A stretch of DNA of 10,229 nt from IMG/VR virus record IMGVR_UViG_2541047831_000006; one strand, given 5' to 3'. Below the pieces are notes generated by a model. That model saw only the letters and a program-made list of their open reading frames with translations. It did not search any database and had not been told where the DNA came from. Shown here piece after piece: positions 2,715 to 9,961 of the stretch. The position numbers and the translations under genes are program-made. The DNA is from a virus. Taxonomy: Duplodnaviria > Heunggongvirae > Uroviricota > Caudoviricetes. Position 1 is the stretch's first letter. Each line of letters starts with the position of its first letter.

Positions 2715-2744
2715 TGAAGTGGTCAACAAAAACTGGCCACCGAG

Positions 2745-3563
2745 TTAGAGTTTTTTCCAGTATCGATTTTCCGATTCGTTTGGTGGTAACCCACCATTAT
2801 ATTCGTGCGGTCTTAGTGCGCTGTAATATCCAACGATATAGTCCGTTATTGCGTGAGCTGCATCGCTGAAGCTTACATAGCCCGTCGCCGGCACCCATTC
2901 GTTCTTCAGACTCCTGAAGAAGCGCTCCATTGGGCTGTTATCCCAGCAGTTTCCACGCCGACTCATACTCTGCCTGATCCGGTATCTCCACAGTAACTGC
3001 CGGAACTGCCTGCTCGTATAATGACTGCCTTGATCGCTGTGGAACATCACCCCGACGGGCTTACCACGGGTTTCCCATGCCATTTCCAGTGCTTTCATGG
3101 TAAGCCTGCTGTCCGGCGAGAACGACATGGCCCAGCCCACTGGTTTTCTTGCGAACAGGTCGAGAACAACGGCGAGGTACGCCCAGCGCTTACCCGTCCA
3201 GATATAGGTCACATCACCGCACCACACCTGATTTGGCTCGGTCACGGCGAACTGCCGTTCAAGGTAGTTAGGGATAGCAACATGTTCATGACCACCACGT
3301 TTATACCGGTAAGTCGGCTGCTGACAGCTGACCAGCCCCAGCTCTTTCATGAGTCTGCCAGCAAGCCAGCGCCCCATCTGGTAGCCTCTCTGGGTTGCCA
3401 TTGTGGCGATGCTTCTTGCTCCGGCAGAGCCGTGGCTGATGCCATGCAGTTCAAGTACCTGGCTGCGTAATACAGCCCGTCTGCCGTCTGGCTTTTCAGG
3501 ACGGTTTTTCCAGTATTTGTAGCTGCTGCGATGGACCCCGAACACATGGCAGAGAGTGGCCAC
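2745..3563 (-). CDS. IS911 orfB (transposase catalytic part; expressed as OrfAB fusion by programmed -1 frameshift at AAAAAAG, 3635..3641 on minus strand)
   Basis: 272-aa ORF from its first ATG with IS3-family DDE transposase features; the orfB frame is -1 relative to orfA. The true fusion protein begins at the orfA start. Confidence 0.8.
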
Positions 3564-3589
3564 AGGATAACGCGCCCTGAGTTTCCCGA

Positions 3590-3892
3590 TTATCGAGAAC
3601 TGTTCAGGGAGTCTGACATCAAGAGCGCGGTAGCCTTTTTTAATATTTCATTTTCCATTTCAATACGTTGTAGCTTTTTCCTGAGCTCACGGATTTCAAT
3701 TTGTTCCGGGGTAATAGGGGAGGCTTTTGGTGTTTTTCCCTGCCGCTCATCACGTAATTGTTTCACCCATCGCGTCATTGTGGAAAGGCCGACATCCATA
3801 GCGCTGGCTGCATCTGCCACGGTGTAATTCTGGTCAACGACCAGTTGAGCGGATTCGCGTTTAAACTCTGCGCTGAAATTTCTTTTTTTCAT
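3590..3892 (-). CDS. insN: IS911 orfA (100-aa HTH/leucine-zipper regulator; N-terminal part of the OrfAB transposase)
   Basis: Sequence [53 protein letters not shown]... matches IS911 OrfA as I recall it. The ORF track's 112-aa version includes an upstream extension with no obvious support. Confidence 0.8.
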
Positions 3893-3964
3893 TATGGCAC
3901 CTGTGTTGTTCTGAGGTGAGCATATCACCTCTGTTCAGGTGGCCAAATTCAGTAAACCACTTCA

Positions 3965-4451
3965 AAAGTAATTCTGATAGAGCTGATGTATCATCATGAA
4001 CACCATCACCAATAGCCCCCCAACCTCTTACATCATAACTGTCTCTCCATCTTGCTATCTGAAGTTTTGGGTATTTATTCGCTCCATCTGGGTCTTCTAA
4101 TTGCTGCCGTAGTTGATCAGGATCATACTTCAGCACATTCTGGAAATAGAACTGCTGTACGCCATACGCATCGTACACAGCCATAGAATGGCCTTGCACA
4201 GTTACGAACTTGGCAATCCGTCCGTTATATACAGGGTAACCAGCAGCGTTAATGATGATTGGTTGCGAAACAGGAACGTGAGAGCCGTCTTCGTTCTCTA
4301 CATAAACCTGAATCCGGTTTTCAGGATTTACCGGGTCAGTGTCAATTTTACCGATATAAATTTTGCCATTGGCTACGGCTTTAAAAGAACGCGCCATAGT
4401 GAAGAGTTGCGAAGGCATCGATACAATCACATTGGCTGTAATGTCTGTCAT
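3965..4451 (-). pseudogene. Tailspike 5' portion: P22 gp9-like N-terminal head-binding domain followed by the start of the endosialidase region; reading frame runs into IS911
   Basis: N-terminus [11 protein letters not shown]...[21 protein letters not shown]...[10 protein letters not shown]...[13 protein letters not shown]...NVLKYDPDQ closely resembles the P22 tailspike head-binding domain. It then switches to endosialidase-like sequence ([20 protein letters not shown]) before the IS junction at 3964/3965. Start ATG at 4449..4451 with GGAG about 10 nt upstream. Confidence 0.85.
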
Positions 4452-4507
4452 TTAATTTGCTCCAGATGCAAAGAATCGCCGCAGCATGGCCACGGTGAAT
4501 TTTGGGC

Positions 4508-4532
4508 ATAAAAAAACCCAGCCGAAGCTGGG
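4508..4532 (-). terminator. Rho-independent terminator downstream of ant (minus strand): stem CCCAGC/GCTGGG with CGAA loop followed by a U-run
   Basis: Plus-strand sequence AAAAAAACCCAGCCGAAGCTGGG; on the minus strand the hairpin is followed by 7-8 T residues. Lies between the ant stop (4552) and the tailspike start (4451). Confidence 0.6.
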
Positions 4533-4551
4533 TCGTTGCGTTGGTTATCTG

Positions 4552-7811: not shown

Positions 7812-7986
7812 ACAAACCTCCTTCTTATCGGAGATTATCAATAGCTATGCATCCATTGAATACACGCTATGCGCAATAAGTTTACGTCACGTGATATCAT
7901 TATGCAACCACCGTTCTATCACCGACTAACTTTACTCCCACTCCTATACATCATCTGGTATCCTGCGCAAAACTAAGGAGGTTGGT
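7812..7986. promoter_or_regulatory. Divergent intergenic region between the hypothetical/YafO-like operon and the membrane-protein gene; contains overlapping palindromes TCACGTGA (7887..7894) and GATATC (7893..7898)
   Basis: Strong Shine-Dalgarno sequences on both flanks imply promoters for both divergent transcription units lie here. No confident -10/-35 assignment. Confidence 0.3.
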
Positions 7987-8337
7987 GTGAATGCTCAGTC
8001 TGTCATCATGGTTTTCCTTGGGCTGATTGTCGCAAAACTATATCCAGACTGGTGGAAAGGGGCATTAGCTACTGTCGCCATCTATTTGCTTTTATCCATC
8101 GTTAAGCGATCACTCGCTGAGACCGTAAATCAAGCAAAACGTTTCTCATTTAAGAGTTTAATAAACTATGTTACTGGGCTTATTTTTTGCCTTTCAATTC
8201 TGATCGCTTCGGCTTTTTTGCCCGTATCAATAGCTAATTTTTTTGGCGCACCATATGAGGTAGGTTATCTATTCTCTGTTTCCTGTCTTGCCATTGCTCT
8301 TCTTTACCTGTGGACGAGATCAAAGAATAAAAATTAG
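7987..8337 (+). CDS. Small integral membrane protein (116 aa, about 4 predicted transmembrane helices), GTG start
   Basis: AAGGAGG (7974..7980) 6 nt upstream of the GTG at 7987. Four hydrophobic segments (SVIMVFLGLIVAKLY; ALATVAIYLLLSIV; YVTGLIFCLSILIASAFL; YLFSVSCLAIALLYLW). Confidence 0.6.
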   Translation: MNAQSVIMVFLGLIVAKLYPDWWKGALATVAIYLLLSIVKRSLAETVNQAKRFSFKSLINYVTGLIFCLSILIASAFLPVSIANFFGAPYEVGYLFSVSCLAIALLYLWTRSKNKN

Positions 8338-8354
8338 CCATCCGTGGCTGCCAG

Positions 8355-8630
8355 TTATTGAGCTTCTTTTTGTGATGCCTGTGCGACTCTGGTGAGCGAT
8401 TGTGTGACCGTACTGATCGCTCTGTCATATGCTGTGCTACCTTTTGGCGTATTTGCCAGACGTAACAAGGCATTTCGTATAACAGGGCTTTCGTATGCCT
8501 TCGCAGCTCCTCCTACGACACCAGCAGCAGGAACAACAAACGCAGCCGTTTTTAGCATCCCCGCTAATACTGCTGCGTTTATGATGCCACCACCAACTAA
8601 CAATCCATAAAGCTGCTGACCATTTAAGTT
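8355..8630 (-). pseudogene. Possible 3' fragment of a gene truncated by IS911 copy 2 (Gly/Ala-rich hydrophobic segment, then a polar C-terminus)
   Basis: The minus-strand frame is open from the IS boundary (8630) through to the stop at 8355. The only in-frame starts are TTG (8603) and an ATG (8558) with a weak RBS. No target-site duplication at this IS copy. Confidence 0.3.
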
Positions 8631-8702
8631 TGAAGTGGTTTACTGAATTTGGCCACCTGAACAGAGGTGATATGCTCACCTCAGAACAACACAGGTGCCA
8701 TA

Positions 8703-9005
8703 ATGAAAAAAAGAAATTTCAGCGCAGAGTTTAAACGCGAATCCGCTCAACTGGTCGTTGACCAGAATTACACCGTGGCAGATGCAGCCAGCGCTATGGA
8801 TGTCGGCCTTTCCACAATGACGCGATGGGTGAAACAATTACGTGATGAGCGGCAGGGAAAAACACCAAAAGCCTCCCCTATTACCCCGGAACAAATTGAA
8901 ATCCGTGAGCTCAGGAAAAAGCTACAACGTATTGAAATGGAAAATGAAATATTAAAAAAGGCTACCGCGCTCTTGATGTCAGACTCCCTGAACAGTTCTC
9001 GATAA
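8703..9005 (+). CDS. insN: IS911 orfA
   Basis: Identical translation to the copy 1 orfA. Confidence 0.8.
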
Positions 9006-9031
9006 TCGGGAAACTCAGGGCGCGTTATCCT

Positions 9032-9850
9032 GTGGCCACTCTCTGCCATGTGTTCGGGGTCCATCGCAGCAGCTACAAATACTGGAAAAACCGTCCTGAA
9101 AAGCCAGACGGCAGACGGGCTGTATTACGCAGCCAGGTACTTGAACTGCATGGCATCAGCCACGGCTCTGCCGGAGCAAGAAGCATCGCCACAATGGCAA
9201 CCCAGAGAGGCTACCAGATGGGGCGCTGGCTTGCTGGCAGACTCATGAAAGAGCTGGGGCTGGTCAGCTGTCAGCAGCCGACTTACCGGTATAAACGTGG
9301 TGGTCATGAACATGTTGCTATCCCTAACTACCTTGAACGGCAGTTCGCCGTGACCGAGCCAAATCAGGTGTGGTGCGGTGATGTGACCTATATCTGGACG
9401 GGTAAGCGCTGGGCGTACCTCGCCGTTGTTCTCGACCTGTTCGCAAGAAAACCAGTGGGCTGGGCCATGTCGTTCTCGCCGGACAGCAGGCTTACCATGA
9501 AAGCACTGGAAATGGCATGGGAAACCCGTGGTAAGCCCGTCGGGGTGATGTTCCACAGCGATCAAGGCAGTCATTATACGAGCAGGCAGTTCCGGCAGTT
9601 ACTGTGGAGATACCGGATCAGGCAGAGTATGAGTCGGCGTGGAAACTGCTGGGATAACAGCCCAATGGAGCGCTTCTTCAGGAGTCTGAAGAACGAATGG
9701 GTGCCGGCGACGGGCTATGTAAGCTTCAGCGATGCAGCTCACGCAATAACGGACTATATCGTTGGATATTACAGCGCACTAAGACCGCACGAATATAATG
9801 GTGGGTTACCACCAAACGAATCGGAAAATCGATACTGGAAAAAACTCTAA
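9032..9850 (+). CDS. IS911 orfB (transposase; OrfAB fusion via -1 frameshift at 8954..8960)
   Basis: Identical translation to the copy 1 orfB; frame is -1 relative to orfA. Confidence 0.8.
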
Positions 9851-9961
9851 CTCGGTGGCCAGTTTTTGTTGACCACTTCACTATGACCACTGGATGCTGT
9901 GGGCGCAGATAGCACATGCAGACGTAACTAATATTCGAATTGAAGAACTGAAAGAACACCA

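Follow-up and report, generated by a model that had tools for sequence, protein, structure and literature searches.

How an inverted pair of identical insertion sequences (ISs) came to bracket the immunity and moron genes of a prophage, and what the second copy of the pair marks, is the question raised by the locus studied here. It lies in a 10,229-nucleotide stretch of Caudoviricetes DNA (IMG/VR record IMGVR_UViG_2541047831_000006; hereafter the window), which, by its gene content and order, is most of a 12.7-kb decayed CUS-3-like (P22-type) prophage at the argW/dsdC site of a K1-type Escherichia coli. Comparison with intact relatives and with sister strains makes it very likely that an ISEc52 element inserted into the prophage, that 30,139 bp were lost at the junction now occupied by the second copy, and that a further ISEc52 entered the tailspike gene later.

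The window is an exact match to scaffold KE700866.1 of the NCBI assembly GCA_000459115.1, a draft in which a gap of 100 N lies 1 nt to the left of the window. Read in the orientation of the window, this scaffold carries in its left part fadL, mlaA, yfdC, argW, intS, and neuO; in its middle the C-terminal part of the tailspike gene, an IS, the N-terminal part of the tailspike gene, ant, arc, mnt, and a ClpP-like gene; and in its right part a YafO-like gene, two hypothetical genes, an IS, torI, dsdC, dsdX, and dsdA. The attachment (att) cores are 12,722 bp apart and enclose everything from intS to torI, the same layout being found in the strains SF-088 and PE144. The features on which the argument turns are the following.

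2712-2714, no strand: target-site duplication AAA, left copy (comparison with the empty site)
2715-3964, minus strand: ISEc52 copy 1, 1250 bp, simple insertion (identity and end comparison)
3965-3967, no strand: target-site duplication AAA, right copy (comparison with the empty site)
8355-8630, minus strand: stump of a P22-gp16-type DNA ejection gene, the last 91 codons and stop of 670, which bounds the deletion on its inner side (RefSeq "injection protein, missing N-terminus")
8631-9880, plus strand: ISEc52 copy 2, 1250 bp, exactly on the deletion junction (flanks GTT/CTA)
9881-9971, plus strand: 3' 91 nt of a 168-bp early-left open reading frame (ORF), the homologue of CUS-3 orf63, forming the outer edge of the deletion (100% identical to CUS-3, phiv205-1, and S88)

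The deletion at the second copy

The initial annotation had read copy 2 as the mark of an IS-mediated deletion by which the head, lysis, and early genes were lost, and alignment to the intact CUS-3-like prophage of S88 bears this out. Between its cores that prophage spans 40,301 bp, and it matches the non-IS DNA of the window throughout at 100% identity. In it, the sequences flanking copy 2 stand 30,139 bp apart. The inner flank stops within the gp16-type gene (2013 nt), 276 nt short of its end; this gene has its full length in S88, so that the truncated ORF noticed beside the copy is indeed the end of this gene, while the outer flank starts 77 nt into the 168-nt ORF that precedes torI. Compared with the uninterrupted references, copy 2 has no target duplication, GTT standing on its left and CTA on its right, as had been supposed from the window by itself. 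The junction reads …TTTAAGTT/ISEc52/CTATGACC…, and the breakpoint is ambiguous by 1 nt, the junction base being T in both sequences. On its inner side the junction at first seemed to contain 4 nt of microhomology (TGAA), but this was an alignment artefact of a 1-nt gap, the true overlap being this single T. CUS-3 of RS218 and phiv205-1 were set aside as references for the inner breakpoint, since neither shares positions 6789-8630 of the window. This segment has no match in the phage collection and is present in S88 and 50 other complete genomes.

The stretch that is missing relative to S88 contains, on the structural side, the rest of gp16, the other ejection genes, and the genes for head completion, coat, scaffold, portal, and terminase. 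It further contains the lysis genes, Q, the nin region, the replication genes, cII, cro, cI, N, erf, and the remaining early-left genes. What is retained are attL, intS, neuO, the broken tailspike, the immI region (ant, sar, arc, and mnt), the ClpP-like and YafO-like morons, torI, and attR. Measured against S88, the remnant is not a functional phage: the virion, lysis, replication, and immunity C modules are all gone, and the tailspike is interrupted too. No intact structural module lies immediately beyond position 9880, where torI, attR, and dsdC are found instead. The chromosomal synteny is unbroken on both sides (fadL-mlaA-yfdC-argW-intS ... torI-dsdC-dsdX-dsdA) in the source scaffold, SF-088, and PE144, and since the order and orientation of the flanking chromosome are standard, the 30 kb were deleted rather than relocated by an inversion.

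The right end of the window, outside copy 2, holds these features.

9961-9987, plus strand: terminator-like hairpin followed by a T-run, between the orf63 stump and torI (consensus match only)
9994-10009, plus strand: 16-mer repeating the T-arm of argW, TTGCAGGTTCGATTCC (annotated as "attR core" in CUS-3)
10029-10229, plus strand: torI, which encodes the recombination directionality factor (excisionase) of argW-family prophages (PDB 1z4h "Tor inhibition protein"; RefSeq torI)

This DNA had been described as unrelated to the prophage and as carrying a tRNA-like core and an AlpA-like gene, in which case copy 2 would join the remnant to a different integrated element with a tRNA-derived att site. 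The 16-nt T-arm match at 9994-10009, followed by a small helix-turn-helix gene, has the appearance of such an element. However, the same 349 bp end intact CUS-3-like prophages: positions 9881-10229 are 100% identical to positions 43470-43818 of phiv205-1 and to the right end of S88, and positions 9881-10009 are 100% identical to positions 40079-40207 of CUS-3. The gene, moreover, is torI, the partner of intS at the other end (PMC2951348), and matching att cores, CTGCAGGGGACACCAT, bracket the whole remnant. To judge by these identities, what lies beyond copy 2 still belongs to the same prophage, as its right end, and a join to a foreign element is exceedingly improbable.

The torI product matches PDB entry 1z4h over all 66 residues (1-66, E = 6.6e-43), which makes the supposed AlpA-like gene the prophage's own excisionase; the AlpA-like naming was abandoned, Pfam and NCBIfam giving just a sub-threshold HTH_17 match. 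TorI is the excisionase of the recombination module shared by KplE1, CUS-3, HK620, and Sf6, in which intS lies at the opposite end of the prophage (PMC2951348). The tRNA-like core is real as far as the T-arm 16-mer is concerned, but it is part of the phage right end and neither a tRNA gene nor a foreign att site, and ARAGORN called no tRNA gene at 9994-10009. The CUS-3 record stops at this 16-mer and therefore excludes torI. The experimentally defined core of KplE1, CTGCAGGGGACACCAT, lies downstream of torI (PMC2951348), and the same 16-nt core is present at the 3' end of argW and again 74 nt past the end of the window. The halves of the argW 3' end are hence split around torI, with TTGCAGGTTCGATTCC upstream and CTGCAGGGGACACCAT downstream. 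The difference between the "attR core" of the CUS-3 record and the core defined for KplE1 affects where the end of the prophage, and hence torI, is drawn.

Two smaller observations concern the DNA between copy 2 and torI. With the N antiterminator deleted and the hairpin at 9961-9987 in place, little read-through into torI is predicted, whether out of the IS or from sequences upstream, which would bear on the ability of the remnant to excise. In addition, an 8-nt copy, TGACCACT, of the tip of the IS right end lies in direct orientation at 9884-9891, 3 nt outside copy 2. Such an 8-mer occurs in 13 of 7607 other 20-nt positions of the window and was noticed post hoc, and it may reflect either chance or a target preference.

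Copy 1, the sister strains, and the order of events

Copy 1 had been annotated as a simple insertion with a target duplication, and the empty sites agree with this. The uninterrupted site holds a single AAA in CUS-3 (CP000711, positions 4985-4987), S88, and PE144, and the AAA found on both sides of copy 1 is therefore a genuine 3-bp target duplication. The copy is located at about codon 163 of the 981-codon tailspike, between the head-binding domain and the endosialidase part. Duplications of 3-4 bp accompany the simple insertions, namely AAA at copy 1, ACG in the SF-088 tailspike, and CTGG in MB1159, and the lack of one at copy 2 is what a deletion junction leads one to expect.

The order of the two events follows from the sister strains. 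In a search set of 5426 complete genomes, the exact junction was found in two, SF-088 and PE144, and the inner segment in 51. PE144 is 100% identical to the window over positions 1-2714 and 3965-10229, with copy 1 absent and the tailspike intact. SF-088 has the same junction and an uninterrupted AAA site; here the second ISEc52 lies in direct orientation where the window has position ~2215, flanked by the ACG duplication. Its two copies, at 14018-15267 and 20432-21681 of its extract, are direct and 5.2 kb apart. Because PE144 and SF-088 share the junction but not copy 1, the deletion is ancestral to the group, and the tailspike insertions are later and independent. As far as these genomes tell, the copy at the deletion junction is the older one, and the tailspike copy came later and in the lineage of the window only. 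A single recombination between the direct copies of SF-088 would delete the N-terminal part of the tailspike, immI, and the morons, and would produce a smaller remnant. The tailspike of phiv205-1 also holds an IS, which is a different element at a different site.

The same genomes bear on an explanation in which the window is an inversion isomer, i.e., the two copies recombined and the odd flanks of copy 2 are simply exchanged flanks. Identical inverted repeats of 1250 bp at a distance of 4666 bp are a legitimate substrate for homologous inversion. The segment 3965-8630 is, however, collinear with S88 and PE144, in the same orientation and 100% identical. Copy 1, furthermore, keeps AAA on both sides, and swapping the flanks would give AAA/AAC and TTT/CTA, which are also unmatched, while PE144 shows the GTT/CTA junction in the absence of any second copy. 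The initial annotation had already considered an inversion unlikely, and these comparisons leave it almost no probability for the assembled state.

Nor is it credible that the inverted ISEc52 pair acted as a composite transposon that carried the immI and moron segment into the prophage, even if the arrangement of an IS, 4.7 kb of cargo, and an inverted IS resembles composites of the Tn5 and Tn10 type. Relative to the tailspike and gp16, the cargo is placed and ordered as in the native arrangement of S88, and no common duplication is present outside the pair, which has AAA on its left and CTA on its right. In the sister strains, moreover, this cargo is accompanied by a single IS or by copies in direct orientation. 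The inverted arrangement is incidental, a by-product of two separate events, and constitutes neither a functional unit nor a composite transposon.

The quality of the assembly has to be considered as well, since 1.25-kb repeats could have been misjoined in a short-read draft, giving rise to the junction or to the second copy. The source scaffold does contain the N-gap beside the window, and an IS of such length is usually not resolved by short reads. The junction, on the other hand, recurs without a single difference in two complete genomes that are independent of each other and differ in continent and host, and copy 1 has edges with the expected ends and a clean 3-bp duplication, which a misjoin would not create. 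An artefact of this kind is thus quite unlikely overall, being excluded for copy 2 by the two complete genomes and improbable for copy 1.

Identity of the element and the route of the deletion

The repeat finder reported inverted arms at 2715-3971 and 8624-9880, but this length of 1257 nt was discarded, the final 7 nt being mismatched on direct comparison. The real elements, at 2715-3964 on the minus strand and 8631-9880 on the plus strand, are 1250 bp each, mutually 100% identical, inverted, and 4666 bp apart. Both copies have the ends TGAAGTGG...CCACTTCA, with terminal repeats that agree at 26 of the 40 outermost positions. A length of ~1.25 kb and imperfect terminal inverted repeats of the form 5'-TG...CA-3' are as expected for the IS911 group of the IS3 family. 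The orfA gene is followed by an in-frame A6G slippery motif (8954-8960), at which a -1 shift yields an open 382-aa OrfAB. OrfB scores 302.8 bits with the IS3 transposase model NF033516 of NCBIfam (cut-off 160), and the transposase gene also matches the Pfam families rve and rve_3, which represent the DDE catalytic domain. On these features, both copies are intact IS3-family elements.

Of the description as two identical inverted IS911 copies, the identity and the inversion stand, while the name does not. The label "ISEc52" is used in RefSeq for copies that are 99.5-100% identical to the element of the window, and "IS911" for copies at ~94%. The identity to copies labelled IS911 or IS3-family in RefSeq is 94.2% and 93.8%, and the left end is TGAAGTGGTTTACTG in the window element vs TGAAGTGGCACACTG in an IS911-annotated copy. 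By the ISfinder convention, isoforms are more than 95% identical in DNA. Going by its sequence, the element is ISEc52, a close relative of IS911 and not IS911 sensu stricto, a name that is taken from RefSeq labels and not from an ISfinder reference. Like the IS911 prototype, it has 1250 bp, TGAAGTGG ends, and the orfA/A6G/orfB organisation; unlike in an isoform, the nucleotide identity is only ~94% (73 mismatches in 1250) and the left terminal repeat is different.

A single IS with unmatched flanks at the edge of a deletion is the classic footprint of either recombination between copies of the same orientation or adjacent deletion. The sequence of events would accordingly begin with an intact prophage of ~40 kb, into which ISEc52 inserted at what is now one or the other breakpoint. 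Had the IS first entered the gp16-type gene, a GTT duplication would have been visible at this stage (...TTTAAGTT/TGAAGTGG and CCACTTCA/GTTTTGAACG), and had it first entered the orf63 homologue, a CTA duplication (...CGACTGCTA/TGAAGTGG and CCACTTCA/CTATGACC). In the second step, 30,139 bp were lost, leaving a single IS with GTT/CTA flanks, presumably either through RecA recombination between two IS copies in the same orientation or through a transposase-driven adjacent deletion, two routes that the data cannot separate. In the third step, shown by the strain comparison, a further ISEc52 entered the tailspike at about codon 163, in the opposite orientation and with the AAA duplication.

There is precedent for the second step. 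In the long-term evolution experiment, 14 of the 83 IS movement events were IS150 movements (IS3 family) with deletions of 14 bp-48.9 kb; none of these had a target duplication, and all came after an earlier IS at the same site (PMC11708052). Elements of the IS911 type move by a copy-out/paste-in mechanism through a circle in which the ends are separated by 3-4 bp (PMC2909936). These observations favour the formation of new nearby copies followed by recombination between them. That a configuration with copies in the same orientation does arise at this locus is seen in the direct pair of SF-088. The deletion of the window resembles those of IS150 in that an IS is left at the edge, that their size reaches ~49 kb, that a target duplication is absent, and that they proceed stepwise from a pre-existing copy (PMC11708052). 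It differs from them in that the intermediates were seen there in a time series, and no intermediate genome is at hand here.

Some points weigh against the sequence of insertion, deletion, and later tailspike insertion as we propose it. None of the 5426 complete genomes contains an intact prophage with ISEc52 at either breakpoint, SF-088 and PE144 being the only ones in which a flank is matched together with the IS, so that the breakpoint hit first and the route of the deletion stay inferred, while its outcome is shown. A one-step alternative is conceivable, in which the IS inserted into the break of an unrelated deletion, as proposed in PMC11708052. Copy 1 is supported by one draft scaffold, the ORF that spans its junction being found in one assembly only in the public collection. 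The 100% identity between the copies, finally, may stem in part from the assembler consensus; the source scaffold being a draft interrupted by an N-gap, this perfect identity is unsuitable for dating.

Elements of the IS911 group recur at the torI end of argW prophages. In the argW remnant of SWYHX138, an IS911 lies 1 nt before the torI ATG, with the flanks ATA/CAT and no duplication; in TUM13936, an IS911-group element lies inside torI at codon ~6, again with no target duplication; and in MB1159, a simple ISEc52 insertion with its CTGG duplication lies ~620 bp upstream. Together with that of the window lineage, all four elements are oriented like torI, and the three independent junctions that have no target duplication (window lineage, SWYHX138, and TUM13936) are all within ~150 bp of the torI start. 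This recurrence could indicate a hotspot or represent mere survivors of selection.

Known relatives and the retained cargo

Several features identify the element as CUS-3-like: the integration at argW, the duplicated att core, intS at attL, and torI at attR, and in addition neuO with its AAGACTC repeat downstream of an endosialidase tailspike with a P22 head-binding domain. CUS-3 (RS218, CP000711) and S88 share with it the argW-dsdC site, intS, the neuO AAGACTC repeat, the endosialidase tailspike, and the torI-side right end, and positions 1-2714 of the window are 100% identical to both. Compared with S88 and CUS-3, the window lacks 30.1 kb and has gained two copies of ISEc52, and its immI and moron block (4885-8630) differs from RS218 and equals S88.

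CUS-3-like phages at argW-dsdC are prone to decay, the distance between neuO and dsdC falling to as little as 8 kb (PMC9659370). As in the decayed elements of CE10 and SCU-175, loss of the phage has brought neuO to within ~8-12 kb of dsdC, but the junctions were not described in that report (PMC9659370), whereas the junction of the window is base-precise and IS-bounded. CUS-3-like decay at argW-dsdC and IS3-family deletions that leave no duplications are both already known, and the event is ordinary prophage decay. Its value lies in being a base-precise example of how virulence-linked cargo, neuO, is kept while the phage is disabled by two IS events, of which one removed 30 kb of lytic functions and the other broke the tailspike. 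The junction TTTAAGTT/ISEc52/CTATGACC is, moreover, a clean clonal marker of a small sublineage to which SF-088 (from human blood in the USA), PE144 (from chicken liver in Pakistan), and the source strain belong.

The remnant can also be compared with KplE1 (CPS-53) of K-12, a defective prophage of ~10 kb that also lies at argW. Its repressor, structural, and lysis genes are gone, while intS, torI, and the 16-nt cores CTGCAGGGGACACCAT are kept. Unlike KplE1, the window carries neuO, a broken endosialidase tailspike, and immI as cargo, and an IS at its deletion junction. KplE1 is still able to excise (PMC2951348), and in the remnant the parts for excision, intS, torI, attL, and attR, are all intact in sequence. 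The remnant might thus be a still-excisable 12.7-kb mini-element, pared by selection to neuO, immI, and the toxin/ClpP cargo, with the torI end serving also as a preferred landing or anchor site for the IS911 group, although we regard this combined proposal as rather doubtful.

The retained cargo comprises the following features.

1-94, minus strand: heptanucleotide phase-variation repeat at the neuO 5' end, AAGACTC on the gene strand (tandem 7-nt repeat; neuO poly(psi) domain in the CUS-3 record)
253-2714, minus strand: endosialidase tailspike, part downstream of the insertion, C-terminal ~820 codons (100% identity to S88 and PE144; Pfam)
3965-4451, minus strand: tailspike 5' part, P22-type head-binding domain (Pfam Head_binding, E = 1.8e-65)
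4552-5457, minus strand: ant antirepressor of immI (Pfam P22_AR_N and P22_AR_C; RefSeq "phage antirepressor Ant")
5455-5521, plus strand: sar antisense RNA of immI (Rfam RF00262, 83.9 bits, gathering score 43)
5687-5839, minus strand: arc, ribbon-helix-helix repressor gene, divergent from the mnt-like gene (Pfam Arc)
5954-6202, plus strand: mnt-like ribbon-helix-helix repressor gene (Pfam Arc)
6202-8337, mixed strands: moron block overall (100% identical in 51 complete genomes)
6202-6738, plus strand: ClpP-like gene, 178 aa (Pfam CLP_protease)
6787-7236, minus strand: YafO-family toxin gene, 149 aa (Pfam YafO_toxin)
7245-7811, minus strand: 188-aa hypothetical protein (no family match)
8008-8337, plus strand: 109-aa hypothetical protein of the moron block

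O-acetylation of the K1 capsule is the function of the neuO product, which protects against K1 phages. The window begins within a CTTGAGT tandem repeat, corresponding to what the CUS-3 record gives as the phase-variation tract (AAGACTC) of neuO, and this heptad repeat at the very start of the window also identifies the element as CUS-3-like. In the source scaffold, the tract is split by the 100-N gap, with 13 repeats on each side (14358-14652 of the scaffold extract), and because the gap falls inside the tract, the number of repeats, and hence the ON or OFF phase of neuO, cannot be read for the source strain. The gene called for the C-terminal part of the tailspike matches the Pfam families End_beta_propel, End_beta_barrel, and End_tail_spike.

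In the immI region, the sar RNA overlaps the 5' end of ant, and the control region is intact although the main repressor gene, cI, has been deleted. The moron block is absent from CUS-3 of RS218 and from phiv205-1. Within it, the 188-aa protein is encoded just upstream of the YafO-family toxin gene and on the same strand, and is a possible candidate for an unconventional antitoxin.

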